Below, piece by piece: positions 6,910-23,190 of a DNA stretch of 24,000 nt. Origin of the DNA: Rhodohalobacter sulfatireducens (GTDB lineage: Bacteria > Bacteroidota > Rhodothermia > Balneolales > Balneolaceae); the NCBI RefSeq assembly GCF_022012475.1, contig NZ_JAKLWS010000042.1, forward strand, positions 6,916 to 30,915, given 5' to 3'. Every line of letters begins with the position of its first letter. Position 1 is the first letter of the stretch. The position numbers and the translations under genes were made by a program. Under the pieces are notes generated by a model. It saw only the letters and a list, made by a program, of their open reading frames with translations. It did not search any database and was not told the DNA's origin.

Positions 6910-7104
6910 AAAAATAAATAGCCAAGAGGTATAGCGTTTTTCTCTTTGTTAACGAAGGGTTTATCATTCCGGTTCGTTAAACCTTAATAGATTAGTGACG
7001 TGGGTATGATCTATGGTTTGGCTTCAGATTTTTTCGAAAAAACTGTAAGGAATTCCACTTTCCAAGTTCATACAAGAAGAGAATAATAATTAAAATCCAA
7101 TATT

Positions 7105-7566
7105 TTGGGTAACACATATTATCAGATGTATGTACAAACTGTTTTCCCAGTCAAATACAGAAAAGCGATGATCAACGACCTATGGAGACCGGGACTCCAG
7201 GGTGTTATCGGAAAAATAATCAATGATACCGAGTGCAAAACAATCATCATAAATGGTGTTGAAGATCATATTCACTGTCTATTTAGCCTAAAGCCTTCAC
7301 TTTCTCTTTCTGAGGTTATGAAAGAAGTCAAAGCCAAATCTTCAAAGTGGATCAATGAGAGTGGTTTTATTGAACACCGGTTTGAGTGGCAGCCGGGTTA
7401 CGGTGCGTTTTCATACAGCCAATCTCAATTGGGTTCTGTACATCGGTATATAAAGAATCAACAGGAGCATCATCAACAGATGAGCTTCAAGCAGGAGTAC
7501 ATCAAATTGCTTGATAAATTTCAGGTTGAGTATGATGAACGGTTTCTTTTTGATGAGTTGATATAA
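7105..7566 (+). CDS. IS200/IS605-type Y1 HUH transposase-like protein, REP-associated tyrosine transposase (RAYT)-like
   Basis: 153-aa ORF with a TTG start; an alternative ATG lies at 7126. It has the HUH motif 'EDHIHCLF' and the catalytic-Tyr motif 'VHRYIKNQQEHH'. The N-terminus 'NTYYQMYVQTVFPVKYRK' fits the family pattern. It is flanked on both sides by hairpin repeats. Confidence 0.8.
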   Translation: MGNTYYQMYVQTVFPVKYRKAMINDLWRPGLQGVIGKIINDTECKTIIINGVEDHIHCLFSLKPSLSLSEVMKEVKAKSSKWINESGFIEHRFEWQPGYGAFSYSQSQLGSVHRYIKNQQEHHQQMSFKQEYIKLLDKFQVEYDERFLFDELI

Positions 7567-7598
7567 GGACATAGTTGTCAGTCCCACTCTAAATGGAT

Positions 7599-8205
7599 CG
7601 TACCTACGGCACTCATTCCAAGATGAGAACCTCAATCCCCGGAATGAATTCCGGGGTTACAATATCATCATCCGCTCCGCGGATTGGAAAGAATGACACA
7701 TCAACTCTACTTATATCCGTGAATTGAAAGTTGTACCTCAAGCAGCGTAGCTGCGCCCAATACTGTAACCCAGGGATTCATCCCTGGGGTAGTTAGCGAA
7801 CCTGAACAATTGAGTGCCGTCAGGCACGGCCCATATCCCTGCGGCTGTGGTGACTTGCTCTTGATCGTACCATGTAAGATTGACACCACTTTTACTGAAC
7901 GTACCTACGGCACTCTTTCAAAGATAAGGTCCTCGATCCCCGGAATGAATTCCGGGGTTACAATATCATCATCCGCAGGGCGGATTTGGAGATCCTGCTT
8001 GATTACTTATTACAAATTGAAACAACGTTATTTACTTGCAAGCTTTTCACACTCTTTGCTTTGCACGAATTTTTTAAAATCCCGCAAACCTGATGTGTAC
8101 CTCAAGCAGCGTAGCTGCGCCCAATCCTGTAACCCAGGGATTCATCCCTGGGGTAGTTAGCGAACCTGAACAAGTGAGTGCCGTCAGGCACGTTCCATAC
8201 CCCTA
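7599..8205 (+). repeat. Composite multi-hairpin tandem repeat, right array (2 units; the first is shortened, the last is 3'-truncated)
   Basis: Units start at 7599 and 7900, in the same orientation and with the same hairpin set as the left array. Homology fades around 8205-8230. Confidence 0.85.
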
Positions 8206-8459
8206 AGACTTCGGCGGCTTGTGAAGATCGCCTTTTTTGTATTACGTGTTATACATGTACACATATCCGTTCACAATTTGAGCGATGACCGGTTCAACTT
8301 CGCATCAGTCAGCAGCCGGACAGGTATCTGAGATCGTTTAAAAGTATCCCTTTGGAGCAGATCTTCAATTTTATACCCATACCAGGAAATCCTGCAGCAA
8401 TAGACTTTTCCCACAAAAAAATGATGAAAACCGGGAGGTAGATGGGTTCAAAGAGTCAC

Positions 8460-8545
8460 TTAGGCGAGCTTTTGTTTTAAGCAACTCCTTTTAATGTAGC
8501 CAGGTTTTCCCCTCATTACCAAATCGTTTTTATGATATATGAGTA
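8460..8545. repeat. Dispersed ~85-bp intergenic repeat, copy 2
   Basis: See 3831-3915. The sequence is ttaggcgagcttttgttttaagcaactccttttaatgtagccaggttttcccctcattaccaaatcgtttttatgat. Confidence 0.8.
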
Positions 8546-8863
8546 ATATTAGATAATAGTTATCAATAGCATACTAAACATGACTGATAGTAGATCAACT
8601 ATAGTTTCATTTAACTCGATCTCTTCAAAAACTATGGGAATCATGTACGTTTATTTATGAATATCGTTCTTTGAATCGAGTTCAATGCCCTCTAATTTCA
8701 CAACCGGGACCGTTACGTATCTTGAACTTATCATGAATCATTATTGATATGTATTGGATCTCGGCGATATGATCAATGATTCGATCACATATCTGACCTT
8801 CTACATAGGTGTAAATATCAGATAAACACTCTTTTAACCAGGAAGACCTCTTGTAAACAAGAC

Positions 8864-9193
8864 TTATTCTCCATTAAACTTCTCGGCTCGAATAACCTCG
8901 ACATCTTCCAGGTAAACGATTCCTGAATACTTGTTAAAACACTCTTCAACAATCTTACTCCCTATCTCCTCTGCAATTGATTTATTTTTGACGATCACCT
9001 CGATTCGCACTGTCGAAAAGTCATCCACCACCGATGCCCTCTCTGACGTATAATGCTGGTGATGAGCTCCTTTACCCCCCGCAGGAACCACCGTATATCC
9101 ACGGGCACCACTTGATTCAATAATATCAAGGATTTTCGGCGTCAGAATTTTTTCAGCGATAATCACAGCTTTTTTTGCTTTGTGAAATGTCAT
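8864..9193 (-). CDS. sbtB: PII-like signalling protein SbtB
   Basis: 'KAVIIAEKILTPKILDIIESSGARGYTVVPAGGKG...IEVIVKNKSIAEEIGSKIVEECFNKYSGIVYLEDVEV' closely parallels cyanobacterial SbtB as I recall it. I prefer the ATG at 9191-9193, which is preceded by GGAGGA, over the track's upstream start at 9256, which would overlap sbtA. It lies directly downstream of sbtA. Confidence 0.75.
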   Translation of the reverse strand: MTFHKAKKAVIIAEKILTPKILDIIESSGARGYTVVPAGGKGAHHQHYTSERASVVDDFSTVRIEVIVKNKSIAEEIGSKIVEECFNKYSGIVYLEDVEVIRAEKFNGE

Positions 9194-9236
9194 GTTTATG
9201 TCCTCCGGGTAAGTTGGTTTGATAAAGAGATCGGAT

Positions 9237-10238
9237 TTAAAATACAATTTGTGCAAGTGCTATAAAGAGCGGAATTCCCACGGCGATAGCAATCGGTGTT
9301 CCCACACTGGTGGAAGCGCCAATGTAGGCCGATGGATTCGCAGAGGGAATGCCGGCCCGCAGTGTAGGCGGTCCCGAGATGTCGGAGTTGGACGATGCGA
9401 TTACAGCCAGAATCACCACGCCTCCCGCACTGAATCCAACCAGAAGGTGGGCGATGTATCCCAAGCCAAATGCGATGAGCCCATGCATTAAAGGAGCCAG
9501 GGCGGCATAGACGGCATACCAGTGAGCAACACTTCGCAGCTCCTTGATCCGGTCATATGCCTCCATTCCCATAATCAGCATAAGGATTGAAAGAAAGCCC
9601 CGGAATAACGGATCGTAAAAGGAGTGCAGCACAGAGTCTGAATTGGTCAGAAGTCCGAGGGCTAATCCGAGCAACAATGCGGACAAGGCAGATCCTCTCA
9701 AACTCTCCTTGATGATATTCCACACATTGACGTCGGTATCCTCCCCTTTTTCCTGCTTTTTCAGGTGAATGTTCGCCACCACAATGGCAAGTATCAGGGC
9801 CGGGATATCCATAAAGGGGTACAGAGCCGGTGCCCATGCTTCAAAGGGGATAGATTCCTCTTCAAGCACCACAATGGCAACAGCCAGCGTTGATGCACTT
9901 ACTGCCCCAAAGAGTCCGGCCGTTGCAATTCCGTCCTCTTTGTCAACCCCGGGCAGGATTGAAAAAACAGTGATACCGATCCTTACAGTCAGCAAACCGA
10001 TTAAGATCGACAGGAAGGCCGGAAGTGCCATTTCCAGCAGGTTTGCTTCCCGGATCTCGATGCCGCCCTCCAGCCCTATCTTCATGAGCAACATAAAGAC
10101 GATAAACTGATAGATGGCATTGGGTATTTTTAGCTTACTTCCAAGTGCAGCGACCAGCATCCCGCCAATCAGGAACCCCAGTGTGGGTGATTGAAATTGT
10201 ACCAGGAATCGAATAAAAAAATCCGCAATAAAGTCCAT
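9237..10238 (-). CDS. sbtA: Sodium-dependent bicarbonate transporter family permease SbtA
   Basis: 333-aa polytopic membrane protein. 'QSPTLGFLIGGM', 'GLFGAVSASTLA', 'YPFMDIPALILAIVVANI', 'FYDPLFRGFLSILMLIMGMEA' and 'SDISGPPTLRAGIPSANPSAYIGASTSVGTPIAI' are near-identical to conserved blocks of Synechocystis SbtA as I recall it. Confidence 0.85.
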   Translation of the reverse strand: MDFIADFFIRFLVQFQSPTLGFLIGGMLVAALGSKLKIPNAIYQFIVFMLLMKIGLEGGIEIREANLLEMALPAFLSILIGLLTVRIGITVFSILPGVDKEDGIATAGLFGAVSASTLAVAIVVLEEESIPFEAWAPALYPFMDIPALILAIVVANIHLKKQEKGEDTDVNVWNIIKESLRGSALSALLLGLALGLLTNSDSVLHSFYDPLFRGFLSILMLIMGMEAYDRIKELRSVAHWYAVYAALAPLMHGLIAFGLGYIAHLLVGFSAGGVVILAVIASSNSDISGPPTLRAGIPSANPSAYIGASTSVGTPIAIAVGIPLFIALAQIVF

Positions 10239-10859
10239 TTAAATGATCTGCGAGTTTTAAAGTTTCGTGGCATCGTACTGTCTATGATATCATCACAAAA
10301 ACCACGTTTTTTAATGCGGGCATAAACTAACATCTAAGATGTATAAATAAACTTTAATTATTTTTATATAGACCATAAACAATACTATATACTTTGGGTT
10401 AGGTCTGATATGGAACATCTCTATATGCAAAGGCCGATTCCGTAAACCGTGCGAGTATTGTCTTTTATTTAATCCCCTGATTCAAACTGTTTCGATACGT
10501 GATGTGTGAAGTGCGAGTTTTATTGAAGTCATTGGTTGAGTGACTCAAGCACTGACTATGTTTAGTGCAAAATCAGTTATCATATTCCATTTGTGCTTTT
10601 TTGATATGCGATTGTAGATATGCAATCTCTGATCTATTTTATCCTCCACAGCAGTTCTCAATTCATAACCCTGCATGCCAATAAACGGCAACAAAAACAG
10701 CAAAGCGCAAATTATTTTTTCTGTTTTCGTGCTTTCGTGGCCTGTTTCATCAGGCCAGATCCTATTGCATAATTCACATCAATTTTGTTAAAAACTATTG
10801 GCATGCATAGATTTCTTGCATCAAAAAAGAAATAGATCTGTCAATCTAAACTCTCCGTA

Positions 10860-11177
10860 ATGAAACCAACCAAACGGGACTGGAAAATCTTTCGTGATAT
10901 GCTGCCGGAACTGCGAGAACGTTATCTCGCCGAACGCAACCAAACATTTATCACTCTTTTGAAAAGCGATGAACGAACACCAACGGAGCAGTTCTGGGAT
11001 ACGCTGGAGGCCATGAAGAAAGAAGCAAAAATACTGCAAGACTGCCTGAATGGATACACAAAATCCAACATGGATATGCGAATCCTGCTGATGCTCCGCC
11101 ACGGCCTCATGAAAGAGGAGGATCTGGATGGGTTTAGTGAAGAGCTGCGGGAATGGGTACGAAAAGTAAGACAGTAA
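10860..11177 (+). CDS. Hypothetical protein (helical; has a decayed paralog at 5547-5690)
   Basis: 105-aa ORF with an ATG start. I recognise no family. A paralogous fragment elsewhere in the window supports it being a real gene family. Confidence 0.5.
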   Translation: MKPTKRDWKIFRDMLPELRERYLAERNQTFITLLKSDERTPTEQFWDTLEAMKKEAKILQDCLNGYTKSNMDMRILLMLRHGLMKEEDLDGFSEELREWVRKVRQ

Positions 11178-11282
11178 AAAGAATCGAGGGTATTGTGAAG
11201 ATATGCAATATGCGATCTCTGATCTTTTTTACTTCACACTCACCGGGAGATTAAGGAATACCAATAACCGTATTCAAATTTT

Positions 11283-11309
11283 ATTAAAAAGACAGCCAAT
11301 ATTCGGCTG
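11283..11309 (-). terminator. Putative intrinsic terminator after the last gene of the island's minus-strand block
   Basis: The minus strand reads cagccgaatattggctg (5-bp GC stem, 11293-11309) followed by tcttttt. It lies about 40 nt downstream of the stop at 11348. Confidence 0.45.
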
Positions 11310-11347
11310 CCTACTAATTTAATAATCACTTTAAAATTTCAGATCTA

Positions 11348-11800
11348 TCAGTTCTCCTGATAGATCTTAAGCAACTCTTTGCGTTTATAAAGCCGTTCAC
11401 CAATGTGAACTTTTGAACTCCCAAATGTTGCAGAAGCTTGTGCAATAAGTTTTTTCTCGTTTTCTGAGAGATTATTTTCCAGACGAACTGAACCTGCAGA
11501 TCCCTGATCTTTATACATAAGCAAAAGAACCTGTCGAACTTCATTTATGAAATTAAAGGCCCGGCAGTGCAAGAAAATATTGAGGACCAGGTCCGGTTCT
11601 GGAGAATCGCTGATTCGCTTTGGAAATGTGGCCAAAATGGTGACCTGTCCGTTTTTAACCTCTGCCACTTCAGCCCAAATCCCTTTAAACATGGCAATCC
11701 ATTTAATACCTGCCTGGGTAAAGGAATGATTAAGTTCTTTTAGCTCTTCGGCATTGAGCGTTATGTTGTATTTGCTTTTTTGATCGTTATTTGATTGCAT
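11348..11800 (-). CDS. Hypothetical protein (island-borne, unassigned)
   Basis: The ORF track gives 11348-11992 from a TTG. I prefer the first ATG (11798-11800; MQSNNDQKSKYNITL...), which gives 150 aa. I recognise no motif. Its AT-rich composition matches the island. Confidence 0.45.
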   Translation of the reverse strand: MQSNNDQKSKYNITLNAEELKELNHSFTQAGIKWIAMFKGIWAEVAEVKNGQVTILATFPKRISDSPEPDLVLNIFLHCRAFNFINEVRQVLLLMYKDQGSAGSVRLENNLSENEKKLIAQASATFGSSKVHIGERLYKRKELLKIYQEN

Positions 11801-12175
11801 AAGATGTAACGTTTTATGAAGATTTTGGTTCGTTACATCAAGACAGATAAGATGGGACTCGTATAATTGGATATCGAATCTAACTATCCCACATCGCTGA
11901 AACCACCGTGCCCGAGAAGGCCGGTTGGTAATTCGGCGGTAGACGAATTTCTTGACTTTTTTTGAAGATAAATATTGGTCAGAAATTCTCAACTTGTTTT
12001 AAAGGCTGTATTTTCGACCCTGCCACACTCAATTAGTGTGATTAGGTAATCAATTAATTGGATATGAAGATAACTGGAACTGATAAGTTGCTTCACTAAT
12101 GACTAAAAGCTTTTAAATTGAAAACTGACAGGAAAGAAAATAAATGTGACTAATGATTTATTAGGTACAACGTAT

Positions 12176-13021
12176 TCAAAAGTTCGGAAATCTATTATTT
12201 TTAATCTTCTTCTTTAATTCTTCAATTGTGTAAGGAGGTTTTTTTTTGTGGAGCATTGCATGACAGTTGGGACAAACAGGTACAAGATCTTTTTTGGGAT
12301 CTACGAAATATGTACCATCTATTTCTGACAAGGGTATTTTGTGATGCACATGAATGAAACCTTCTCCTATTTTGCCATAGATTTCTCCAAAATTCAAGGA
12401 ACATACCTTGCAGGTTGTACCATAAAGTTCAATGCATGCTGCTCGATTAATATTGCTCCGTTCATATCTTGTATTTGTAACTATATATGCCTCTCCTTCC
12501 TCCTCTACTGAATATCTATTTTCATTATCAATGGGCTCAAGAGGTAATAAAGAAATGCATAGACCAAAAAAAGAAATAACCCAAGGAAATACTTTTTCAA
12601 AGTCTTGATCAATTTCCTCTCCAAAAATAATCTGCCCCTTTCGCATTGAGATATCAATACTATTCCAGTTTATAGGCCATTGACTCGGCTCATTTGGTTT
12701 ATAAGATTGTTTATTTATTTGAAGATTTAAATCAGCTCCTTTCTCCAACAAGGATTCAGCGAAAACTTTGAAAGCAGCGCGCTGATTCTGATTAGAAGCC
12801 TCCATGGCGTTTACCAAATCTCTCGCAAAACTGCCCGGAACAAACTTGATTTCAACACTCCTCCACTTTAATTTTGTGAGGATTTTGAAACCAACCGTTC
12901 TTGCAAGATCTGATGGCCTAACAGTAATCGTTCTGTTGCCATGAAAACTTTCTATATTAACTGAAACATCAATACCGAATCGTTCTCTAAGTATTGATGA
13001 AGCATTATTTTCAGTAAGCAT
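12176..13021 (-). CDS. HNH endonuclease with an unassigned ~190-aa N-terminal domain
   Basis: The C-terminus is 'CKVCSLNFGEIYGKIGEGFIHVHHKIPLSEIDGTYFVDPKKDLVPVCPNCHAMLH' (CxxC...HH...CxxCH, a McrA-type zinc HNH). Its ATG (13019-13021) lies 1 nt after the upstream gene's TAG (13023-13025). Confidence 0.85.
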   Translation of the reverse strand: MLTENNASSILRERFGIDVSVNIESFHGNRTITVRPSDLARTVGFKILTKLKWRSVEIKFVPGSFARDLVNAMEASNQNQRAAFKVFAESLLEKGADLNLQINKQSYKPNEPSQWPINWNSIDISMRKGQIIFGEEIDQDFEKVFPWVISFFGLCISLLPLEPIDNENRYSVEEEGEAYIVTNTRYERSNINRAACIELYGTTCKVCSLNFGEIYGKIGEGFIHVHHKIPLSEIDGTYFVDPKKDLVPVCPNCHAMLHKKKPPYTIEELKKKIKNNRFPNF

Positions 13022-13022
13022 C

Positions 13023-14621
13023 CTATTCTTCTTCTAAAACTGGTTCAGGCAGATCTTCAACAAGTTTTCGCAGAATTCTTGAAACCTCGAATCTTAAATC
13101 CTGCATATGGTTTTTGGTTGTTTCACTCATTGTACGAAGCTCAGCTTCGATTAAAGACCAGAGCAAGGAATCCATACCCTGTATCAAGACTCCTGATGAA
13201 AGGTTAGGCACATAAACCTTACTGTAATAAGGATGGCCTGTATTAATTAAGACAGCTCGATTTCCATCTACAAGGGCCGGCTTCCAAAGCAAGCCATCAA
13301 CAATGCTTTCGACTGGCTTGACAAATACTTGGCCCGGCTTAACCGATGACTCTATATCCAATTTAATACTCACTTTGCCAGATTTATTGGTAACCTCTAC
13401 ATCATTCTGTTCCTCATCAACAACATCAATTTCAGCTCCTTTCAGATCCTTTTCCTTGCCTGAAATATTCCTGTTTGACTCATCATGAGCATCTTCCGAT
13501 TCTTCTTGGACTTTTTTCTTCTTGCCGGTCCTATATCTGTCATTAGCAGCAGTTCTAGGTGCAGGAAGAAATCTTTCGTGTACGAACTTGTAAAGTTCTT
13601 CATTTAGAATTATTTGAGATTTTTTTATATCAACCTGAAATGCCTCATCCAATTCATGATTAAATGAGAACTCAATTCTAAGAAGAGAGTAGTGAGGTTC
13701 CTTAGTGTACATTCCCAGCCAATCTGCAGGATGTATCAATCTGTTTTCTCTGTAAATGTAAATGCCTTGATTATCATTATTTATCTTGGCGCTCTCAGCA
13801 GCTTCCTCAGTACTGAAATTTTCATTGCGTGGTAGTACGAATGCCCGAATCTGAAACTCAGTTTCTGTTCCATCCCCAACCTCTACTTTGATACTCTCAT
13901 CAGCCACCATTTCAGTTTGTGGTTCTGATTCAAAAAATGGATTCCAAGGATCTATAGGTTTACCATTTAGATTCATCTCTATATTCCTTGCACGATCATC
14001 TTCAGGATCTAGAAATCGTTGATAAATCATTCCAGCATGTTCACGAAAACTCTTTACTCGTTTGTCCAAAGCTCTTTGCTCATATTTCCCCCCCGGAGTC
14101 GCATATTCTTTCAACAGTCTGTCAATAGTACCCCATATTACAAGAGTGCCTGATGAATTCTCAGCAGTTTTCTCAAGGTACTTTTTTTCAAAATTAGTTG
14201 GGCTCTCCAATAACAGCTCCCACTCAGCAACTTTCACCACGTGGTCAAGATCCCATGTAGCTTTTAGTGGTTCAACATCTGCGGAATGTCTAGTAATAAC
14301 AGATAATCTCCTGCAATAGGCAGTTGATGCAGTTTTTAGCCCGAGGCCAAATTTCCCCAATCTCTTGGGGTTGTTATCACCTTTGGAGCCATATGTCATA
14401 CCATCTTTCAAAGTTGTTTTATCCATTCCACAACCATTATCTGCCACCATGATTAATTTATCCCCGTCTCCGTCCATCTTGATGTAAATATCAATCTTGG
14501 TCGCATTTGCATCTACTGAGTTATCTACAATATCTGCCAATGCTGTATTGAAATCATAGCCCGTATCTCTTAATCCCTCCATTAATTTACTTGGATTGGG
14601 AGGTAAATTTACTTTATCCAT
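13023..14621 (-). CDS. MORC-like GHKL ATPase (HATPase_c_3-type)
   Basis: The Bergerat-fold motifs are present: 'ALADIVDNSVDANA' (N box), 'VADNGCGMD' (G1) and 'GKFGLGLKTAS' (G2). The MORC-type 'GIYIYRENRLIHPADW' lies downstream. The C-terminal half is long and charged. Confidence 0.8.
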   Translation of the reverse strand: MDKVNLPPNPSKLMEGLRDTGYDFNTALADIVDNSVDANATKIDIYIKMDGDGDKLIMVADNGCGMDKTTLKDGMTYGSKGDNNPKRLGKFGLGLKTASTAYCRRLSVITRHSADVEPLKATWDLDHVVKVAEWELLLESPTNFEKKYLEKTAENSSGTLVIWGTIDRLLKEYATPGGKYEQRALDKRVKSFREHAGMIYQRFLDPEDDRARNIEMNLNGKPIDPWNPFFESEPQTEMVADESIKVEVGDGTETEFQIRAFVLPRNENFSTEEAAESAKINNDNQGIYIYRENRLIHPADWLGMYTKEPHYSLLRIEFSFNHELDEAFQVDIKKSQIILNEELYKFVHERFLPAPRTAANDRYRTGKKKKVQEESEDAHDESNRNISGKEKDLKGAEIDVVDEEQNDVEVTNKSGKVSIKLDIESSVKPGQVFVKPVESIVDGLLWKPALVDGNRAVLINTGHPYYSKVYVPNLSSGVLIQGMDSLLWSLIEAELRTMSETTKNHMQDLRFEVSRILRKLVEDLPEPVLEEE

Positions 14622-14640
14622 AAGTCATCAGATTTTAGAA

Positions 14641-15066
14641 TTAAATATTAATTACTTTCCAGGAACTACCGAGCTTTAATTTTCCATTTTTGTCTGTTGA
14701 TATTTTATTCTGTTTCTCTAACTCGATTGAATAGATAGCATTATCATCTCGTTTCAATATTAGTTCATCACCTGCCTTTAGGCTGTGTTTTCTCATAAAT
14801 TTGGTCATTCCAGTTAATCGATACTCATTTCTGGTACCACCAAAAAATATATTGTTATAGTAAATATAATTGAATGTCCATTTTTCATTCATTGGATCTG
14901 CAAATTTGATTGAATGACGTGGATTCTTGGTTTCTTTGGTTAAAGAAGGAAAGAAGCTCAATATCTCCTGCTGCTTTGGTACATGAATACCTGCTTGATG
15001 AGCACCAGTTTCACCGGTATCATTTTTTGTCAATTCTTTACTTATAGATTTTGTTCTTTTTATCAT
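14641..15066 (-). CDS. Stand-alone EcoRII-N-terminal-like (B3-like pseudobarrel) DNA-binding domain protein
   Basis: The 141-aa protein aligns with the N-terminus of the EcoRII-like enzyme in this window. Compare 'LTKNDTGETGAHQAGIHVPK..FFPSL....KNP...IYYNNIFFGGTRNEYRLT' with 'LSGNDTLANGSHQAGPYVPK..VFPSL....KNP...IWYNNKFHGGTRNEARLT'. Confidence 0.8.
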   Translation of the reverse strand: MIKRTKSISKELTKNDTGETGAHQAGIHVPKQQEILSFFPSLTKETKNPRHSIKFADPMNEKWTFNYIYYNNIFFGGTRNEYRLTGMTKFMRKHSLKAGDELILKRDDNAIYSIELEKQNKISTDKNGKLKLGSSWKVINI

Positions 15067-15081
15067 AGTTATACGAATTTC

Positions 15082-17037
15082 TTAATTACTTAGAATTGGT
15101 GATTTTTTCAAAGATTTTCTAATATCTGCCAGATCCTCATCCTCGCCTTCAGTTCCAATTATGGCCTCTTCTGATAGCTCTCTTTTTCTTGACAATCTTT
15201 CATTAATCACTTCTTCAACTGTATTGGGATGATAGAGCCTGTGTACAGTAACGGGTCTTCTTTGTCCCAACCTGTGAACTCTGGCTGTGGCTTGATCTTC
15301 AACAGCTGGATTCCATTCAAGATTGTAATGAATGACATGATTTGCACTTGTAATATTTAAGCCAGTACCAGCAGCTTTGGGATTCAATACCAACAAAGAA
15401 GCACCCTCTCTTTCACTAAAAGCATCAACAATTTTCTGCCTTTCTTTAACAGGAATCCGCCCATCAATTTGATAACTTTTCATACCAAAATACCGAGACA
15501 GATAATCCGAAATAATATCAGACATGTTAAGGTATGAAGTAAACACCACACACTTTTCTTCATTGGACTTGATTTCGTCCATTAATTCCATAAGGCGTAA
15601 GAATTTAGTACTAGTAAAGGCAGGGTCACCATCAATGCTCTCATCAAGTAATTTGGGATGGGCACAAAATTGCCTGAGTTTGACTATTGATACCAAACTC
15701 GCATTGGCCTCATATTTCCTTTCAATCTCCAGCCTAATTTCTTCATATTTCCGACTTGCTTCATCAGAAAGGGGTATTGGTTGAGGAATAATAATTTTTT
15801 CAGGCAAATTGTTGGCTACTTCAGGTATGGTTCTTCTTAGGATAAAAGGAGAAACTATCTGTTCAACTCTTTTTGCATCCTCAATCGAATCTTGATAATT
15901 AGTCTCAAAATATTCTCTATCCCCAAGAAATCCTTTATTGCAAAAATCCATTATTGACCATAGATCAGTCAATGAATTTTCTACAGGTGTACCAGTAACT
16001 GCTATGTATACATCACTATCCAGTTTTTTTAAAATATTAGCTCTTTGGGTCTCTGGATTTTTTATTGCCTGGGCTTCATCTATGACAAAAAAGGACCAGT
16101 TTATCATGTTCAACATCGAATAATCTCTAACAGCAGTATCATAAGAGCTTATGACGATATCATACTCTTTGATGTATGAAGGAAATCCAGTGCGATCTGA
16201 TCCTATGTGGATTAAGATCTTTAGATCAGGAGCAAATTTTTTAATCTCTCTTCGCCAGTTCTCCAACAATGTTGCTGGAGCTATAACCAATGTTGGTGAA
16301 GGCATTTCCCTGTTGTTCAATAGAACTAATGCAATAATTTGAATAGTCTTTCCCAGTCCCATTTCATCTGCTAAAATACAACCCAGACGCTCTTGTGCTA
16401 TCATATTCAGCCAAAAAACACCAGTACGCTGGTAATCATAAAGTGTAGCCTCGAATCCGTTCTCGTCAAGTTTGGCTTGAACATCTAAATTCTGATCGAT
16501 TAAATCTTCTTTATCGAGAATTGCATCTTCAGATGTGATCTCTACGTATTCGGGTGCCCCCTTGGCTATCTCTATACATTTTGACAGGTTTATTGGCCCT
16601 GAAGATTCAAGCTCAAAGTCCTCAAATAGGGAATGGATTTGATCCATTTCAGACTTGAGTATTGGGTACCACTGAGAATCCAGGATAAGCTGATCTGAAT
16701 CGGGGAGTTTTTTTAGGTCTACTCTTATGTTTTCACCAACCGCTTTTAGTAATAAATGTGGTTTGACTTTCTTTGTCTCAGGAATTAAAAGCTTAACTTC
16801 AATAGAAAGGGGAAAACGGTGAAATTTTAGGTTTTTGAGTTCAATAGATGGTTTATTTCTTATGTTGGTCCCATGAATCTCCTTTTTATCTTTGTACTCA
16901 ACCTTTACTATATCTGATGAATTTATTTTAATTAATTGTCCTGAGTCAACAAATACAACCTCCCCATTTTTAATTTGCCACTGATTGGTATTTGACACTT
17001 CAGTTCTATTCCGAGCATCTTGGTTAAGAGATTTCAT
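15082..17037 (-). CDS. SNF2-family (SF2) helicase/translocase with an unassigned ~190-aa N-terminal region
   Basis: It has 'LYDYQRTGVFWL', 'LADEMGLGKT' (motif I), 'FVIDEAQAIKN' (motif II) and 'VTGTPVEN'. The C-terminal lobe has 'LLVLNPKAAGTGLNITSANHVIHYNLEWNPAVEDQATARVHRLGQ'. Confidence 0.9.
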   Translation of the reverse strand: MKSLNQDARNRTEVSNTNQWQIKNGEVVFVDSGQLIKINSSDIVKVEYKDKKEIHGTNIRNKPSIELKNLKFHRFPLSIEVKLLIPETKKVKPHLLLKAVGENIRVDLKKLPDSDQLILDSQWYPILKSEMDQIHSLFEDFELESSGPINLSKCIEIAKGAPEYVEITSEDAILDKEDLIDQNLDVQAKLDENGFEATLYDYQRTGVFWLNMIAQERLGCILADEMGLGKTIQIIALVLLNNREMPSPTLVIAPATLLENWRREIKKFAPDLKILIHIGSDRTGFPSYIKEYDIVISSYDTAVRDYSMLNMINWSFFVIDEAQAIKNPETQRANILKKLDSDVYIAVTGTPVENSLTDLWSIMDFCNKGFLGDREYFETNYQDSIEDAKRVEQIVSPFILRRTIPEVANNLPEKIIIPQPIPLSDEASRKYEEIRLEIERKYEANASLVSIVKLRQFCAHPKLLDESIDGDPAFTSTKFLRLMELMDEIKSNEEKCVVFTSYLNMSDIISDYLSRYFGMKSYQIDGRIPVKERQKIVDAFSEREGASLLVLNPKAAGTGLNITSANHVIHYNLEWNPAVEDQATARVHRLGQRRPVTVHRLYHPNTVEEVINERLSRKRELSEEAIIGTEGEDEDLADIRKSLKKSPILSN

Positions 17038-17263
17038 GATTTGTACTATCTCAAGTAGAATTAATTGCAGGCATACCTATAAAAACCTATTTAAAGATTT
17101 TTTGCAAAACATCTGCATTAATTTGACTATAAGAAAATTATATACTTGGTTTTTTCCCGCATCATTACTGTAAAATTTCGTTACTTAAAAAGACAGATAT
17201 GCATTATTTTTAAAGAAAATAAAAAGTATTTCAGGTCTTTTATAGTTTTTTTAAAAACTCTTC

Positions 17264-17293
17264 TTTGATATGTAAGAATTATGTTTATATTTG
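17264..17293 (+). promoter_or_regulatory. Putative Bacteroidota-type promoter (TTTG -33 / TAnnTTTG -7) for the HTH-dcm gene
   Basis: TTTG at 17264-17267 and TATATTTG at 17286-17293 are separated by 18 nt. The motif lies 29 nt upstream of the ATG at 17323. It is relevant only if the host uses the Bacteroidota sigma-A consensus. Confidence 0.35.
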
Positions 17294-17322
17294 GGACAAA
17301 ATGTCAAAAAAAGTCCCAGATC

Positions 17323-18606
17323 ATGGAAAAATTTAATACTCTCAGAGAAAAAGCAGGATTATCAATCGAAGAAGTTGCAGAGCTTACTAACTATAGTAAA
17401 AGACATGTATACAGATGGGAGAATGGAAAAATTAAACCCAAGAAGCCAATCCTAGATGAATTATCTCGAATAGCTGAGAATGGTATTTCTTTTAAAGCCA
17501 ATGGCAAAACAGAATTTACTTTCATTGATTTATTTGCAGGAATTGGAGGAATGAGGAAAGGTTTTGAAAGTGTTGGTGGAAAATGTGTGTTTACAAGTGA
17601 GTGGAATAAATATGCCCGGCAAACCTATGCTGCTAATTTTGAAATGGACCATGATATTGCAGGGGACATAACAAAAATATCAGAGAAAGATATACCTGAA
17701 CACGATGTTTTGCTTGCTGGATTTCCTTGTCAACCTTTCTCTATTGCAGGCGTTTCAAAGAAAAACTCCCTTGGAAATCCACATGGTTTTGAAGACAAGA
17801 CGCAAGGTACTTTATTTTTTGATATTGCAAGAATTCTCAAGCATCATAAACCGTCTGCCATTTTATTGGAGAATGTTAAAAATCTTGTAAGTCATGACAA
17901 GGGGAAAACTTTTCAGGTGATTAAAGACACACTTCAAGAACTGGATTATTTCTTTGATACCCGAATAATTGATGCAAAATCTTTTCTTCCACAACATAGA
18001 GAAAGAATTTTTATTGCTGGATTCAGAACTGATTTAGGATTTGATTTTTCAGAATTAGATATACCTGATGTGAATTCCGGTCCTAAACTTAAATCAATTT
18101 TACATCCCCAAGATGGAAGCGAAGAGGAAGAATTACCTTTTACAATTGGTGAAAAAGCCAAAGTTAATCCTAAATACACTTTAAGTGACAAACTCTGGAA
18201 TTACCTCCAAGATTATGCTGAAAAGCACAGAAAAAAGGGAAATGGTTTTGGTTTTGGATTGGTAGGTCCCGAAGATACTACCAGAACCTTGTCTGCTAGA
18301 TACTATAAAGACGGATCCGAAATTTTGCTTAAACAAGAAGGAAAAAACCCTCGAAGATTAACACCTCGTGAATGTTCTCGATTGATGGGATTTGATAGAA
18401 CCGGAGAAAATGGATTTGAAATACCTGTTTCAGATACCCAAGCTTATAAACAATTTGGTAATGCAGTGGCCGTACCTGTTGTGGAAGAGATTGCCAAATT
18501 TATAAAGCCTTTTATTCTGGAAGAGAAGAAACAGAAAGGGCAATTATTTATGTTTTCAGGAACCACTGATGATGGCAAGAATGAATATTTATCTAAAAGT
18601 GGTTAA
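17323..18606 (+). CDS. dcm: DNA (cytosine-5) methyltransferase, Dcm/M.EcoRII-like, with an N-terminal XRE-type HTH domain
   Basis: The HTH is 'LREKAGLSIEEVAELTNYSKRHVYRWENGK'. The m5C motifs are 'FIDLFAGIGGMRKGF' (I), 'LLAGFPCQPFS' (IV), 'LLENVKNL' (VI), 'RRLTPRECSRLMGF' and 'QFGNAVAVPV' (X). The track start at 17281 adds 14 unlikely residues, so I prefer the ATG at 17323 (MEKFNTL...). Confidence 0.9.
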   Translation: MEKFNTLREKAGLSIEEVAELTNYSKRHVYRWENGKIKPKKPILDELSRIAENGISFKANGKTEFTFIDLFAGIGGMRKGFESVGGKCVFTSEWNKYARQTYAANFEMDHDIAGDITKISEKDIPEHDVLLAGFPCQPFSIAGVSKKNSLGNPHGFEDKTQGTLFFDIARILKHHKPSAILLENVKNLVSHDKGKTFQVIKDTLQELDYFFDTRIIDAKSFLPQHRERIFIAGFRTDLGFDFSELDIPDVNSGPKLKSILHPQDGSEEEELPFTIGEKAKVNPKYTLSDKLWNYLQDYAEKHRKKGNGFGFGLVGPEDTTRTLSARYYKDGSEILLKQEGKNPRRLTPRECSRLMGFDRTGENGFEIPVSDTQAYKQFGNAVAVPVVEEIAKFIKPFILEEKKQKGQLFMFSGTTDDGKNEYLSKSG

Positions 18607-18691
18607 TGGAATTATTATTTAAATGATGACTTCTAAATACAATAATAAAGTAGTCTATGAAAAAGAAACTGCATAACAATGAGAAAATTCA

Positions 18692-19918
18692 ATGAAGCCT
18701 AAATTAATTAGTTGGATTGATGATGTTAAAACTCCGGGGTACATATGCTACATAAAGCGACTTTCAGGAAATGATACACTCGCAAATGGTTCTCATCAAG
18801 CAGGTCCATATGTACCTAAAAAAGTACTACTAGGCGTATTTCCATCTCTTAAAAATAAAAATGAGAAAAATCCAGATATATGGTTCGATTTATTCATTGA
18901 TTCCCATAATGACCAAAATGAAGTACGGGCAATTTGGTACAACAATAAATTTCATGGAGGGACAAGGAATGAAGCTCGTTTGACTAATTTCGGAGGTTCT
19001 AATTCTGCTTTACTTGATCCTGATAACACAGGAGCTCTTGTTGTTTTTGCCTTTTTATTGGACAATAAATGTCAAACTGAAGTTTGCAGAGTTTGGATTT
19101 GCAGTGATGAGTTAGAAGAGCGAATAGTTGAAGATTGGGTTGGACCAATTGATCCGGGGCAATGGCAAATATGGTATGATGAAGAATTTGATTGTGCAAA
19201 AACTCTGGTGACTGATTATGAGAAAGACCTTACAAAAAAATCTTGTTGGCTAGATAAGGATGAAATTCCAAAAGGATGGCTGGAAAATTATCCCAGTGGT
19301 TTGGAGATAATAAAAAAGACCGTTGAACTAAGGCCCAGTTACAAGCTACTTCCCGATGAAAGGATAATTAAAAGACGGGAATGTGAATTTGAAGTCTTTA
19401 AGAGCTTGGAAGAAGCTGTAGAATTTCCAAGAATAAAAAAAGGGTTTAAAAATATAGATGAATTTTTGTCAAGAGCACAGAGTATTCTTCAACGCAGAAA
19501 ATCACGTTCTGGATATTCACTGGAATTACATACAAAAGAAATCTTTTTGGAAGAAAATTTAAAAGAGAGTGTACATTTTTCACATCAACCAGAATCAGAA
19601 AAAGGGAAAAAGCCAGACTTTCTTTTTCCGTCTGAAGAAGCTTATAAAAATTCAGGTTTTCCGACTTCTAATCTTAAAATGCTTGCAGTAAAAACTACAT
19701 GTAAAGATAGATGGCGTCAGATTCTTAATGAGGCAGAAAGAATTGAAAAAAAGCATTTGTTAACTATCCAAGAAGGTGTTTCAGAGAACCAATTTAATGA
19801 AATGAAAAAATCTAGTGTTCAGTTAGTAGTACCTGAACCTCTCTTCAAAAAATATCCTGAAAAAATTAGACCACAGCTTCAAACACTTGAGAGTTTTATT
19901 AAAGAGGTTAAAACTTGA
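18692..19918 (+). CDS. EcoRII-family type IIE restriction endonuclease (expected CCWGG specificity)
   Basis: The 408-aa protein is collinear with R.EcoRII as I recall it. The N-terminal effector domain has 'YIKRLSGNDT..GSHQAG' and 'DPDNTGALVVFAF'. The catalytic domain has 'KKPDFLFPS' and 'LKMLAVKTTCKDRWRQILNEA', followed by 'LLTIQEGVS'. Confidence 0.9.
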   Translation: MKPKLISWIDDVKTPGYICYIKRLSGNDTLANGSHQAGPYVPKKVLLGVFPSLKNKNEKNPDIWFDLFIDSHNDQNEVRAIWYNNKFHGGTRNEARLTNFGGSNSALLDPDNTGALVVFAFLLDNKCQTEVCRVWICSDELEERIVEDWVGPIDPGQWQIWYDEEFDCAKTLVTDYEKDLTKKSCWLDKDEIPKGWLENYPSGLEIIKKTVELRPSYKLLPDERIIKRRECEFEVFKSLEEAVEFPRIKKGFKNIDEFLSRAQSILQRRKSRSGYSLELHTKEIFLEENLKESVHFSHQPESEKGKKPDFLFPSEEAYKNSGFPTSNLKMLAVKTTCKDRWRQILNEAERIEKKHLLTIQEGVSENQFNEMKKSSVQLVVPEPLFKKYPEKIRPQLQTLESFIKEVKT

Positions 19919-19921
19919 TTA

Positions 19922-20347
19922 TTATTTTAAATTATTTTGAAGGTTATTGGCTAATCCAGCTAATGTTTTGGTCTTTTTATCCGGTTTCATCTCACACTCC
20001 CAAACAACAATAACATTCCATCCCAAATCTTCCAATTCCTGAATATGCTTTTCATCACGTTCCTTATTTCCGTAAAGCTTCTCTTTCCACCATTCTGTTC
20101 GGGTTTGAGGAATTTTAAAATATTTGCAATCCTCATGCGCATGCCAAAAACACCCATGTACAAAAATGACTGTATTGTATTTAGGCATGACCAGATCCGG
20201 CTTTCCCGGTAAGTCTTTTCTGTGAAGACCGTATCGAAAGCCATTGGTGTGCAGAAATTTCCGGACAATCATTTCAGGCTTGGTATCCTTGCCTGAAATC
20301 TTGCTCATGTTATAACTGCGGGTTTCCGGCTCGTGTACGTCTGCCAT
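19922..20347 (-). CDS. vsr: Very-short-patch repair endonuclease
   Basis: 'MADVHEPETRSYNMSKI...', 'LPGKPDLVMPKYNTVIFVHGCFWHAHEDC', 'TRTEWWKEKLYGNKERD' and 'GWNVIVVWECE' closely follow E. coli Vsr. It converges on the EcoRII-like gene with a 3-nt gap. Confidence 0.9.
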   Translation of the reverse strand: MADVHEPETRSYNMSKISGKDTKPEMIVRKFLHTNGFRYGLHRKDLPGKPDLVMPKYNTVIFVHGCFWHAHEDCKYFKIPQTRTEWWKEKLYGNKERDEKHIQELEDLGWNVIVVWECEMKPDKKTKTLAGLANNLQNNLK

Positions 20348-20351
20348 CTCA

Positions 20352-20633
20352 TTAAGATTCTATGTTTTTCAATTCAATAAACTCACCTATAAAATTACCA
20401 ATCTCTTCGTATTCCTCATCAAACTTCAGAACGATTTGCCTCGTTACCAGATCCACCCATTCTTTAATTTCTGATCTGTTATCAAATTCCTTTAAAAAGA
20501 TTAGCATTGGGTTCTCAACAGTAAAATCATCATTAAAAAACAAACAAATATCTGTCTTAAAAGAATCTCTGTAGTTATCCTCCGCCTGATAAAGATAGGT
20601 TTTGAGTGTTCTTATCTTGTCTTTGTAATTCAT
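20352..20633 (-). CDS. Hypothetical small acidic protein, upstream of and apparently co-transcribed with vsr
   Basis: The track ORF (to 20681) starts at a TTG. I prefer the ATG at 20631-20633 (MNYKDKIRTLK..., 93 aa). Its stop is 4 nt before the vsr start. I recognise no family. Confidence 0.45.
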   Translation of the reverse strand: MNYKDKIRTLKTYLYQAEDNYRDSFKTDICLFFNDDFTVENPMLIFLKEFDNRSEIKEWVDLVTRQIVLKFDEEYEEIGNFIGEFIELKNIES

Positions 20634-20817
20634 GATAAAAAAGCCAGTTTCACAGTCCGTATGTCCTGAATATAGCAGCAAAAAATCAGAAACAAAGGCA
20701 CTTATCTCAATATCTCCTAGCTGAAGATATATCCGAACGCAGAGATGTTAAAGCGTAGATGATAGATTCATTTGACTGCATGCATTTAATATCGAATCGC
20801 GCCTGATGAATATCAAC

Positions 20818-20903
20818 CTCTGCGTTCCACTGCGATCCCAGCCTGTCCCGAACCGTCGGGGCGGTTTTAGAAACTTAACCGTCGAGTGCACAAAGCGGCA
20901 CTG
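20818..20903 (+). repeat. REP-like long-hairpin element, family B (right arm degenerate)
   Basis: The sequence is cctctgcgttccactgcgatcccagcctgtcccgaaccgtcggggcggttttagaaacttaaccgtc.... The left arm matches the copies at 22327, 22828, 23101 and (inverted) 2301. Confidence 0.7.
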
Positions 20904-20982
20904 TTAGTTCTGCAGAAATCTGCGAAACCCGACGAAATTTCAATTAAATTGCCGGAAACCAGGAATTCATCTATTTCATACA

Positions 20983-22194
20983 ATGAAAAAATTACATTTC
21001 CATTCCGTATTCACCGGGTTCGCAGGTTTGATCCTTGCAATGAGCGTATTCGCCTGCACGGCTACAGAATCAAACAACAGTGAAAAGTCCGAAGATGATG
21101 AATATACCGTAGCTGCATACATCTGGCCGTCCACCCACCACGATGCCCGTTTTGGCGACATGTTATGGCCTGAGGGTAACGGGGAGTGGGAGGTCATAAA
21201 AAAAGGAGATCCCCGGTTCGACGGCCATTACCAGCCTAAAGTTCCCTTATGGGGTTACGAACACGATGATGACCCGGAGGTGATGGAGAAGTGGATTGAG
21301 GCCGCCACAGACCACGGAGTGAATGTGTTTATTTTTGACTGGTACTGGTTTGATGAGGGGCCGTTCCTGGAAAGCTCCCTGAACAATGGATTCCTGAAAG
21401 CCGAAAACAGGAATAAAATGCAGTTTTACCTGATGTGGGCCAACCACGATGTACGCAGGAACTACTGGAACGTACACAAATTCAGGGATGACACATCTGT
21501 AATGTGGGAAGGCGCCGTGGACATGGAAAATTTCAAAATCATCGTGGAGAGAGTCATAAACAGGTACTTCAGTCAGCCCAACTACTACAAGATTGACGGC
21601 CGGCCGGTCTATTCAGTCTTTAGCATCTACAACTTGGTAGAAAGTTTTGGCAGCGTTGAGGAAACACGAGCTGCTCTTGACTATTTCAGAGAAGAAACTA
21701 TAAAAGCAGGCTTTCCCGGTTTGCATCTTCAGCTCATCGCCCTCGGTGATCCCGGCGGGGAGATTGTTCAGCAGATTGAGGCCCTGGGAGTGAATAGCAT
21801 CACCAAATACAACTGGGGCGGTCCGCATCCCGAGGATTACATTCAGTGGGGCACCGAATCGAAGGAGCGCAGAAAACAGTGGGATGAAGCGCTCTCCATC
21901 CCCTACTTCCCTAATGCCTCAATCGGTTGGGATGATACACCCCGCTTCCCTGAAAAAGGAAAGGAGGATGTGGTGCACTACAACAACTCGCCCGAAAGTT
22001 TTGCCGCTTTCCTGTACAAAGCCAAAGAGTATAGTGATGCACACCCGGAGCAGCCAAAGCTGATCACTGTTTTTTCCTGGAATGAATGGGTTGAAGGAGG
22101 TTACCTGCTGCCCGACATGAAATATGGATTCGGCTATCTGGAAGCTGTGAAACGGGTGTTCAAGGAGGATTACAATCCCTATTCTGAACAATGA
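20983..22194 (+). CDS. Glycoside hydrolase family 99-like / WbsX-like domain lipoprotein
   Basis: It has a lipobox (AMSVFAC/T). 'PRFDGHYQPKVPLWGYEHDDDPEVMEKWIEAATDHGVNVFIFDWYWF' fits the conserved N-terminal block of GH99-like (WbsX) proteins as I recall it. Confidence 0.6.
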   Translation: MKKLHFHSVFTGFAGLILAMSVFACTATESNNSEKSEDDEYTVAAYIWPSTHHDARFGDMLWPEGNGEWEVIKKGDPRFDGHYQPKVPLWGYEHDDDPEVMEKWIEAATDHGVNVFIFDWYWFDEGPFLESSLNNGFLKAENRNKMQFYLMWANHDVRRNYWNVHKFRDDTSVMWEGAVDMENFKIIVERVINRYFSQPNYYKIDGRPVYSVFSIYNLVESFGSVEETRAALDYFREETIKAGFPGLHLQLIALGDPGGEIVQQIEALGVNSITKYNWGGPHPEDYIQWGTESKERRKQWDEALSIPYFPNASIGWDDTPRFPEKGKEDVVHYNNSPESFAAFLYKAKEYSDAHPEQPKLITVFSWNEWVEGGYLLPDMKYGFGYLEAVKRVFKEDYNPYSEQ

Positions 22195-22326
22195 TTCGAC
22201 CGAAACCGATGGTCGTGATATTAAATCTGGATTGGCGACTACGGTGCACTGCATCGTATAAATTTGAACTCCTTTTTGTGGATCATATAACAGACACCAG
22301 GGCAGGAAAATAAAACCTCCGAGCTC

Positions 22327-22405: not shown

Positions 22406-22482
22406 TGAGTCTCTAACCAATGATTATTGTAAGTATTTGGCTGTTTCTGGTTCATACAGTAAAGAACCCAAATGTATGAGCT

Positions 22483-22815: not shown

Positions 22816-22827
22816 ACAAAAAATAAT

Positions 22828-23091: not shown

Positions 23092-23100
23092 GCTAATAAT

Positions 23101-23174: not shown

Positions 23175-23190
23175 AAAATACCCACGGCTT

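Follow-up and report, generated by a model that had tools for sequence, protein, structure and literature searches.

A Dcm-linked MORC/SNF2/HNH gene cassette from Rhodohalobacter sulfatireducens as a predicted ATP-dependent restriction arm

Gene content of the cassette

A 24,000-nucleotide (nt) stretch of the Rhodohalobacter sulfatireducens genome (NCBI RefSeq assembly GCF_022012475.1, contig NZ_JAKLWS010000042.1, positions 6,916 to 30,915; hereafter the window) carries a cassette of four minus-strand genes that encode an SNF2-family translocase, a stand-alone EcoRII-N/B3 protein, a MORC-type GHKL ATPase, and an HNH nuclease. A gene for a Dcm-type cytosine methyltransferase diverges from the cassette, followed by genes for EcoRII and Vsr. 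In window coordinates, the features are as follows:

12176-13021, minus strand: HNH nuclease, 281 amino acids (aa) (Pfam HNH)
13023-14621, minus strand: prokaryotic MORC-type GHKL ATPase, 532 aa (Pfam HATPase_c_3)
14641-15066, minus strand: stand-alone EcoRII-N/B3 DNA-binding subunit, 141 aa (Pfam EcoRII-N)
15082-17037, minus strand: SNF2-family double-stranded DNA (dsDNA) translocase, 651 aa (Pfam SNF2-rel_dom and Helicase_C)
17038-17322: control region in the intergenic stretch from which the SNF2 and Dcm operons diverge, with an inverted repeat and a conserved element
17323-18606, plus strand: Dcm-type C5 cytosine methyltransferase fused to a helix-turn-helix (HTH) domain (Pfam DNA_methylase and HTH_3)
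18692-19918, plus strand: complete EcoRII-type Type IIE restriction endonuclease (Pfam EcoRII-N and EcoRII-C)
19922-20347, minus strand: Vsr very-short-patch repair endonuclease (Pfam Vsr, TIGR00632)

Read from SNF2 through B3 and GHKL to HNH, the cassette genes all lie on the minus strand and are separated by 15, 19, and 1 nt. A check of the open reading frames (ORFs) reproduced exactly the coordinates, strand, lengths, and gaps claimed in an earlier note on this DNA; Pfam upheld its four domain calls (SNF2, EcoRII-N/B3, GHKL, and HNH), and every motif that it quoted for the SNF2, GHKL, and HNH proteins was located at defined residues. That note had also stressed that no methyltransferase lies inside the operon. 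This is literally so in the window, but it misleads, as the HTH-Dcm gene starts 285 nt off on the opposite strand and Dcm is a near-obligate neighbor of the cassette in other genomes. NCBI records from R. sulfatireducens include proteins that match the window's B3 and GHKL products at 100% identity. The cassette is held within a low-GC island at ~10.3-20.9 kb (GC content 0.32-0.39 versus 0.44-0.51 in the flanks), and the genes flanking this island are of housekeeping types in a Pfam scan.

The SNF2 protein matches Pfam SNF2-rel_dom (1.5e-62) and Helicase_C (2.7e-21), with the Walker A motif GLGKT at residues 227-231, motif II DEAQ at 320-323, and motif VI QATARVHRLGQ at 582-592. Its N-terminal ~190 aa are variable and without annotation, and the closest solved structure is the Rad54-like dsDNA translocase of Sulfolobus (1Z63, E 4e-85).

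The GHKL protein (Pfam HATPase_c_3, 2.9e-28) comprises a GHKL domain, an S5 domain, and a C-terminal region; its structure model is confident for residues 1-370 and poor for ~375-532. The motifs DNSVDA (33-38), DNGCGMD (61-67), GLGLKTAS (92-99), and YRENRLI (290-296) are present. All four nucleotide-binding motifs of the GHKL class are there, and their residues N34, D61xG63xG65, G89-G94, and T159 are invariant in 31 homologs. The prokaryotic MORC family is defined by the S5-domain motif GhXhhpXXRhl (PMC2292703). The window protein has GIYIYRENRLI at 286-296, in which G286, Y288, and Y290-L295 are invariant in the same 31 homologs and I296 is kept in at least 90%. A sequence search ranked MORC2 (E 1e-07) ahead of MutL (3e-05), and Foldseek placed MORC2, MORC3, SMCHD1, and MORC4 above MutL and Hsp90, by the small margin of ~1e-13 for the MORC-type entries versus 1e-11. 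The signature motif and the top fold matches to MORC2, MORC3, and MORC4 bear out the assignment of this protein to the MORC type.

The HNH protein (Pfam HNH, 7.4e-06) consists of an alpha/beta N-terminal domain (1-160), a disordered linker (163-187), and a zinc-HNH module (188-278) with the motifs CKVC (204-207), HVHH (224-227), and CPNCH (250-254). Its catalytic and zinc residues are intact: the 30 aligned homologs show no variation at H226, H227, N252, H254, or H258 or at the zinc cysteines C204, C207, C250, and C253. In the AlphaFold2 (AF2) model (pLDDT 86.6), the N-terminal domain is confidently modeled, and a comparison with solved structures gave no significant match for it. Among 1.84 billion representatives searched, this domain is almost confined to ~280-aa proteins of the same layout. 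At 54 loci (L027-L081), only the C-terminal HNH module matches, and none of these loci has the partner genes; what is specific to the system is therefore the N-terminal domain. Our guess is that it is a private docking domain, an adaptor to the MORC protein. With the HNH residues, the GHKL ATP-binding motifs, the MORC signature, and the SNF2 motifs all intact, the enzymes of the cassette look active.

At the same 54 loci, the zinc-HNH module (~175-275, 50-63% identical) is fused to other, unrelated N-terminal regions, and this nuclease module appears to be common to different systems.

Synteny with Dcm and Vsr

The alignment of the 30 HNH homologs served to retrieve loci from a one-genome-per-species collection, and each locus was scored with seven window proteins. 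The resulting 44 related loci, some of them sampled through the GHKL protein, come from bacteria, one archaeon, plasmids, an integrative conjugative element (ICE), and viral contigs. At 25 of the 27 full-length HNH loci of the collection, the SNF2, GHKL, and HNH genes share one strand and keep their order; the two exceptions are L018, which lies at a contig edge, and L009, which has 8 kb of upstream sequence and no partners. The cassette was also found at all five inspected plasmid matches that cover the full-length GHKL protein, at all seven viral-contig GHKL matches of at least 47% identity, on several ~7-kb metagenomic contigs, and in an ICE of Legionella pneumophila. This grouping is far beyond chance. 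Homologs of the GHKL and HNH proteins number in the thousands and occur in bacteria, at least one archaeon, plasmids, an ICE, and phage-like contigs.

Across the 44 loci, we counted SNF2 in 44, HNH in 44, Dcm in 42, Vsr in 37, B3 in 34, and EcoRII in 10, and the SNF2 gene adjoins the MORC gene in every one. The view of the four genes as a conserved module is thus borne out, with the SNF2/GHKL/HNH core universal in this set and B3 in 34 of its members. Drawing the boundary of the system at four genes, with dcm as an optional extra, does not survive the same counts, given the prevalence of Dcm and Vsr and their frequent placement in one operon with the core. The working unit is larger: Dcm, SNF2, B3, MORC, and HNH, with or without Vsr.

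Dcm is adjacent to the core at 42 of the 44 loci, in any of four arrangements (upstream, downstream, divergent, or convergent); of the two loci that lack it, one ends at a contig edge. The taxa with an adjacent Dcm are Bacteroidota, Pseudomonadota, Thermodesulfobacteriota, Actinomycetota, Bacillota, Fibrobacterota, and one archaeon of the Methanomassiliicoccales. Because this adjacency outlasts rearrangement across phyla, it argues for a functional link between Dcm and the core. Dcm is often co-operonic with the core (gaps of 2-72 nt), and the commonest form of the system is a single operon of ~6.6 kb in the order Dcm-SNF2-B3-MORC-HNH-Vsr (L002, L084-L089, L096, L098, L099, and L102). At L084, 2-14 nt separate successive genes, and the HNH and Vsr genes overlap. 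Similarity searches of these single operons, with Pfam for L084-L089, detected no nuclease beyond HNH and Vsr, so that no candidate restriction partner of the methylase other than the four-gene module is left there.

The Dcm linkage bears directly on the idea that the four genes are a self-contained defense system that merely shares an island with Dcm, EcoRII, and Vsr, and that senses phage proteins or DNA ends or mounts a Type IV attack. Such independence would fit the divergent orientation of the four genes relative to dcm in the window, the Dcm-less locus L006, the label "McrA" that JGI gives to HNH homologs, and the resemblance of the SNF2 protein to ZorD and DpdE of methylase-independent systems. 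We nonetheless regard it as unlikely, as island co-location would not predict an adjacent Dcm at 42 of 44 loci in many phyla, often in the same operon. The Type IV version faces further difficulties: next to Dcm, an enzyme directed against 5-methylcytosine in CCWGG would be suicidal, the residues of the reader are those of a domain that 5-methylcytosine blocks, the N-terminal domain of the HNH protein matched no solved 5-methylcytosine reader, and the "McrA" label reflects the generic HNH module only.

In a clade of proteobacterial plasmids, the order is permuted to Dcm-Vsr-MORC-HNH-SNF2-B3, and the MORC/HNH and SNF2/B3 pairs each remain neighbors. This suggests two submodules, a clamp-nuclease pair (MORC and HNH) and a motor-reader pair (SNF2 and B3). 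The occurrence of the cassette on conjugative plasmids, on viral contigs, in the Legionella ICE, in a low-GC island, and on stand-alone ~7-kb contigs amounts to a mobility typical of restriction-modification systems.

Many of the cassette-bearing metagenomic contigs (L084-L088 and others) are 6.5-7.6 kb long, the size of Dcm-SNF2-B3-MORC-HNH-Vsr alone, which suggests that the ends of the cassette are where assemblies break, as would be expected for a strain-variable mobile island. Several loci carry further defense-like genes: an Mrr-type nuclease between Dcm and Vsr (L010:11963-12826), an 861-aa AAA_13/ABC-type ATPase after Vsr (L002:11325-13910), and, in the Legionella ICE, a 1323-aa DUF8371 protein that follows Vsr (L089:12873-16844).

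Recognition and methylation of CCWGG

The B3 protein matches Pfam EcoRII-N (3.7e-17) and B3 (5e-07) and contains no other domain; among solved structures, it is closest to the EcoRII N-domain entries 3HQF and 1NA6. The stand-alone family has ~1,900 homologs, the best 120 of which are all 137-155 aa long. In the co-crystal structure of EcoRII-N, seven residues make base-specific contacts to CCTGG (N28, H36, Q37, Y85, R94, E96, and R98), and binding is lost when the inner cytosine of either strand carries a C5-methyl group (PMC2770665). The window protein retains all seven contacts, as N15, H23, Q24, Y70, R79, E81, and R83. They are kept in 119-120 of the 120 stand-alone homologs and also in the neighboring EcoRII. 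The B3 subunit is thus predicted to read unmethylated CCWGG.

The window methylase (Pfam DNA_methylase 3.5e-88, HTH_3 1.2e-09) shares 51% identity with the CCWGG-specific Dcm of E. coli, and the likeness extends across the variable target-recognition region. It is predicted to protect CCWGG against both the MORC module and EcoRII. At the loci with B3, the Dcm recognition regions are 53-66% identical to that of E. coli Dcm, whereas at the ten loci without B3 they are only 33-44% identical. These ten cassettes (L010-L013, L015, L016, L019, L021, L024, and L025) all have, directly upstream of SNF2, a conserved unannotated gene for a 265-379-aa protein (e.g., L012:5584-6429) with the motifs FVWQD, PNQWFVIASYA, and LWRFxxDYxWWxGQKTIDRxDF. 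The protein had no match in solved structures (PDB), Pfam, or PHROGs, and a hidden B3 domain was rejected at a profile-profile probability of 0.3%. We see in it a candidate for an alternative reader subunit, which would go with a more divergent recognition region in Dcm. Reader type and methylase specificity therefore appear, from these alignments, to change together across loci, as would be expected if the small subunit is a specificity determinant matched to its methylase.

The second protein of the window with this reader domain is EcoRII itself (Pfam EcoRII-N 2e-53, EcoRII-C 1e-62). EcoRII requires at least two sites, has the same reader domain as the B3 protein, and is adjacent to the cassette in the window and at nine other loci. 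One could accordingly imagine the module as an accessory of EcoRII, in which B3 and two ATPases join distant CCWGG sites or clear bound proteins for EcoRII cutting. This is very improbable. The core occurs without EcoRII at 34 of the 44 loci, so the module functions without it, and the module has a conserved nuclease of its own. EcoRII is better described as an optional second restriction enzyme that shares the Dcm methylase.

Vsr enzymes repair the T:G mismatches that arise from deamination of 5-methylcytosine, and the window protein is a clear member of this family (Pfam Vsr 1.4e-32; TIGR00632 146.6 bits, over the cutoff). Its presence raises the question of whether the module might be a repair or epigenome-maintenance machine for the Dcm mark that helps Vsr to process T:G at CCWGG, with a MutL-like MORC, a motor, and a nuclease, in parallel to E. 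coli MutL, which stimulates Vsr and loads UvrD. The module is tightly linked to Dcm as well as to Vsr, its GHKL protein is related to MutL, the B3 reader aims at the exact sequence context of Dcm and Vsr, and the parallel with MutL, Vsr, and UvrD was drawn by Iyer et al. (PMC2292703). Yet Vsr is missing from 7 of the 44 loci, whereas Dcm is missing from only two, and Vsr itself nicks, so that there would be no need for a further nuclease whose catalytic residues are invariant. By homology, B3 should reject methylated and hemimethylated sites, and the patchy, mobile distribution of the module over plasmids, an ICE, viral contigs, and a low-GC island is that of selfish or defense genes rather than of housekeeping repair. 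On balance, we hold a repair function to be improbable.

The control region between the divergent operons contains a conserved element, GGGACAAAATGTCAAAAAAAGTCCCAGA (~17292-17319), immediately upstream of the Dcm start codon and within the promoter region common to Dcm and the SNF2 operon in this window. It overlaps a palindrome at 17289-17321, in which GACA-N3-TGTC is nested in GGGAC...GTCCC (arms 17289-17297 and 17313-17321). The element is kept upstream of HTH-Dcm at L095 and in part at the more distant L001, and it is a candidate autoregulatory operator for Dcm's own HTH. The Dcm ORF opens at 17281; alignment conservation favors the ATG at 17323 as the start, which is also the likelier one because the conserved palindrome occupies the stretch just upstream. 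A scan for sigma-70 promoters was uninformative (29 sites versus 34 by chance), and the promoters of the Balneolales host may differ.

The host flanks (1-10299 and 20901-24000) contain 43 CCWGG sites versus 22 ± 4 expected, and with so many sites host protection is needed. The island (10300-20900) is mildly depleted, with 5 observed versus 11 ± 3.5 expected. Part of the excess in the flanks is accounted for by a repeat with a period of ~365 nt, present as 2.2 tandem copies at 6102-6885 with further copies at 7599-8221; it is broken up by an IS200-like Y1 transposase gene (around 7105-7566), has no matching Rfam family, and carries two CCWGG sites 13 nt apart in each unit.

Other features lie between the cassette and the left edge of the island. 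An S-adenosylmethionine (SAM)-I/IV riboswitch aptamer (RF01725, 47.5 bits versus a gathering score of 41.1) is found at 11853-11963 on the minus strand, 212 nt 3′ of the HNH stop codon. About 50 nt past it is a 150-aa ORF (11348-11800, minus strand, ATG at 11800) that had no match in Pfam, NCBIfam, PADLOC, PHROGs, or PDB. Because of the positions of the aptamer and of this ATG, the 214-aa "ORF" at 11348-11992 is a riboswitch plus a shorter gene. The pair was considered as part of the cassette and rejected, as it is absent from the closest relative, L095; it probably lies outside the cassette, although a SAM sensor beside a SAM-consuming methylase is intriguing. At the island edge itself, a 24-nt direct repeat (92% identical; 10618-10641 and 11208-11231) encloses a 105-aa ORF without assigned function (10860-11177). 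A search for flanking direct repeats as attachment sites of the island gave nothing convincing, and no tRNA gene is present in the window.

Known systems and the proposed mechanism

The VP1/RAV domain is the B3 domain. With this equivalence, the gene set of the window corresponds to one already predicted in silico in 2008, when Iyer, Abhiman, and Aravind described prokaryotic MORC operons with an SWI2/SNF2 helicase, an HNH or EcoRII-like nuclease, a stand-alone VP1/RAV protein, and, often, cytosine methylases and Vsr nearby (Biol Direct 3:8, PMC2292703). By comparative genomics, these operons were predicted to be restriction-modification systems, and the prokaryotic MORC ATPases were put forward as ancestors of the eukaryotic MORC chromatin silencers (PMC2292703). 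The window matches their SWI2/SNF2 type in every respect listed: SNF2 lies beside a MORC protein with the GHKL and S5 signature, HNH, B3, and EcoRII are in the window, and Dcm and Vsr are near. The cassette is consequently not an undescribed system, as the earlier note had supposed, nor is a separate B3/EcoRII-N adaptor a novelty (PMC2292703); its kind is known from prediction only. The 2008 work was purely computational and gave no specificity or mechanism. New relative to it are the six-gene operon order, the proposed CCWGG reader, the two gene-pair submodules, the private N-terminal domain of the HNH protein, and the B3-less variant with its replacement gene.

The part of the earlier claim that concerned named systems fared better. 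Scans with PADLOC v2.0 and NCBIfam covered eight window proteins; these and PHROGs returned no system-level name for the cassette, the PADLOC and NCBIfam models giving domain-level likeness only, and PGAP product names for cassette homologs are generic. The SNF2 motor domain is like those of ZorD (Zorya type I), DpdE (Dpd), and DrmD (DISARM), in the helicase part only. The ZorD PADLOC model scores 474 bits over profile positions 313-889 of 908, a helicase-only match, and the Mrr-like nuclease part of ZorD is absent from the window protein. Zorya was rejected, with no ZorA, ZorB, ZorC, or ZorE hit among the eight proteins and a ZorD NCBIfam score of 260 versus a cutoff of 1500. DISARM was rejected likewise (no DrmA, DrmB, or DrmC match; DrmD NCBIfam 120 versus a cutoff of 950), the partial PADLOC likeness to DrmD and DrmMII reflecting generic SNF2 and C5-methylase domains. 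Dpd differs in that none of its modification genes is in the window. MANTIS (Gao_RL) was rejected for its unrelated composition and missing hallmark genes. Mza is an anti-phage system that is also methylase-associated. The N-terminal ~330 aa of the GHKL protein resemble MzaB (163 and 197 bits; PDLC02204 and NF041932), but 197 bits falls far below the NCBIfam cutoff of 850, no other Mza model hit any of the eight proteins, and Mza was rejected.

The earlier comparison with known systems had left out the closest characterized analog, the ATP-dependent restriction enzymes CglI and NgoAVII (Zaremba 2014, Tamulaitiene 2014, Toliusis 2017, 2018; PMC4267653, PMC4267654, PMC5737866, PMC5861437). They too have a C5 cytosine methylase, recognize DNA through a B3-like pseudobarrel domain, and need NTP hydrolysis by a separate SF2 helicase-like, dsDNA-translocating motor for cleavage. 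Their R subunit is a PLD nuclease fused to the B3-like domain, whereas here the 141-aa B3 protein and the HNH nuclease are separate. EcoRII, whose gene adjoins the cassette in the window, has the same type of methylase and the same Vsr partner, and its N-terminal effector domain is a close homolog of the B3 subunit with the seven base contacts kept. It differs in its PD-(D/E)XK cutting domain, its independence of ATP, and the role of its N-domain as an autoinhibitory effector sensor, whereas the module has separate motor, clamp, and HNH subunits. The logic also resembles that of MutL with MutH or with Vsr and UvrD, in which an ATP-dimerizing GHKL ATPase activates a latent nuclease in cooperation with a helicase and under the guidance of a DNA methylation mark; there, every partner comes from another family, and MutL is a universal housekeeping protein, whereas the module is mobile and patchy. 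Among related GHKL proteins, the closest one with experimental work in the literature searched is VcSduA, a paraMORC3-Shedu fusion of an architecture unlike that of the window cassette; the other papers that turned up on bacterial MORC systems were computational.

We propose that the cassette serves a Dcm/CCWGG restriction-modification system of the prokaryotic MORC/SWI2-SNF2/HNH class as its ATP-dependent restriction arm, and from the sequence comparisons described here, we put the probability of this reading at roughly two in three (0.65). In the best reading of the present locus, a conventional EcoRII has been added and shares the methylase with the four-subunit restriction complex. The proposal draws on gene content, synteny, motif integrity, fold assignments, and reader-residue conservation, from which we infer the biochemical steps, subunit contacts, and regulation. 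We are less confident of any single step than of the whole, and the division of labor into reader, motor, clamp, and nuclease suggested in the earlier note seems reasonable.

Given the full conservation of the EcoRII-N contacts, the B3 subunit would bind CCWGG only when the inner cytosine is unmethylated. It would then recruit or activate the SNF2 motor, to which it stays adjacent under permutation, and the motor would translocate on dsDNA. The MORC GHKL ATPase would dimerize upon ATP binding as a MutL-like clamp or matchmaker and would license HNH, docked through its private N-terminal domain, a step suggested by the adjacency of the two genes and the 1-nt gap between them. HNH would nick or cut the invading DNA. 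Methylation by HTH-Dcm would shield host DNA, and Vsr would mend the T:G mismatches that arise from deamination of 5-methylcytosine. The HTH of Dcm probably binds the operator in the divergent promoter and would time methylase versus nuclease expression upon entry into a new host. The order of these steps follows from the domain identities, the conservation of gene pairs, the MutL paradigm, and the CglI/NgoAVII precedent.

In favor of a restriction arm are the Dcm linkage, the B3 contacts, the likeness of the methylase to E. coli Dcm, the intact motifs, the mobility, the operator-like element, the CCWGG sites in the host flanks, the CglI/NgoAVII analog, and the 2008 prediction (PMC2292703). 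Several points weigh against it. Locus L006 has the core and no Dcm within 10 kb, the subunit pairings are based on gene order alone, the N-terminal domain of HNH is without a recognizable fold and its docking to MORC is a guess, and the need for two different ATPases is unexplained. At the general-base position of the window GHKL protein and its homologs, which precedes the conserved Asn by four residues, the residue is invariably Asp (D30), where MutL (E29) and MORC2 have Glu; ATP turnover may therefore be slow, or the ATPase may be only a switch. By analogy with the autoinhibitory N-domain of EcoRII, a stand-alone B3 protein could regulate rather than recruit, and the extra module looks redundant where EcoRII is present. 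Finally, our searches of the full-text literature found no experimental study of the cassette (as the earlier note had held), of any family member, of any classical bacterial MORC system, or of prokaryotic MORC function in bacteria.

The predicted specificity, unmethylated CCWGG, is now concrete and checkable, and the cassette is compact at ~6.6 kb. Among E. coli hosts, the common K-12 strains are dcm+ and the B strains dcm-. Experiments should be unusually easy, because the choice of strain switches both host protection and substrate methylation. Cooperation of a GHKL clamp with an SNF2 motor, a free reader, and HNH, if demonstrated, would be a new mechanistic type of ATP-dependent restriction and would close a gap in catalogs of defense systems, which appear to label only Dcm, EcoRII, and Vsr here. 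A more speculative and rather doubtful extension is that the system represents a new class of restriction enzyme, in which a detachable B3 reader directs the SNF2 translocase and the MORC clamp onto unmethylated DNA, and MORC topologically traps or compacts this DNA and licenses HNH only afterward. Methylation-guided MORC action is known from transposon silencing in eukaryotes. If the extension is true, methylation-guided MORC action on foreign DNA would be a direct, tractable bacterial ancestor of that eukaryotic process.

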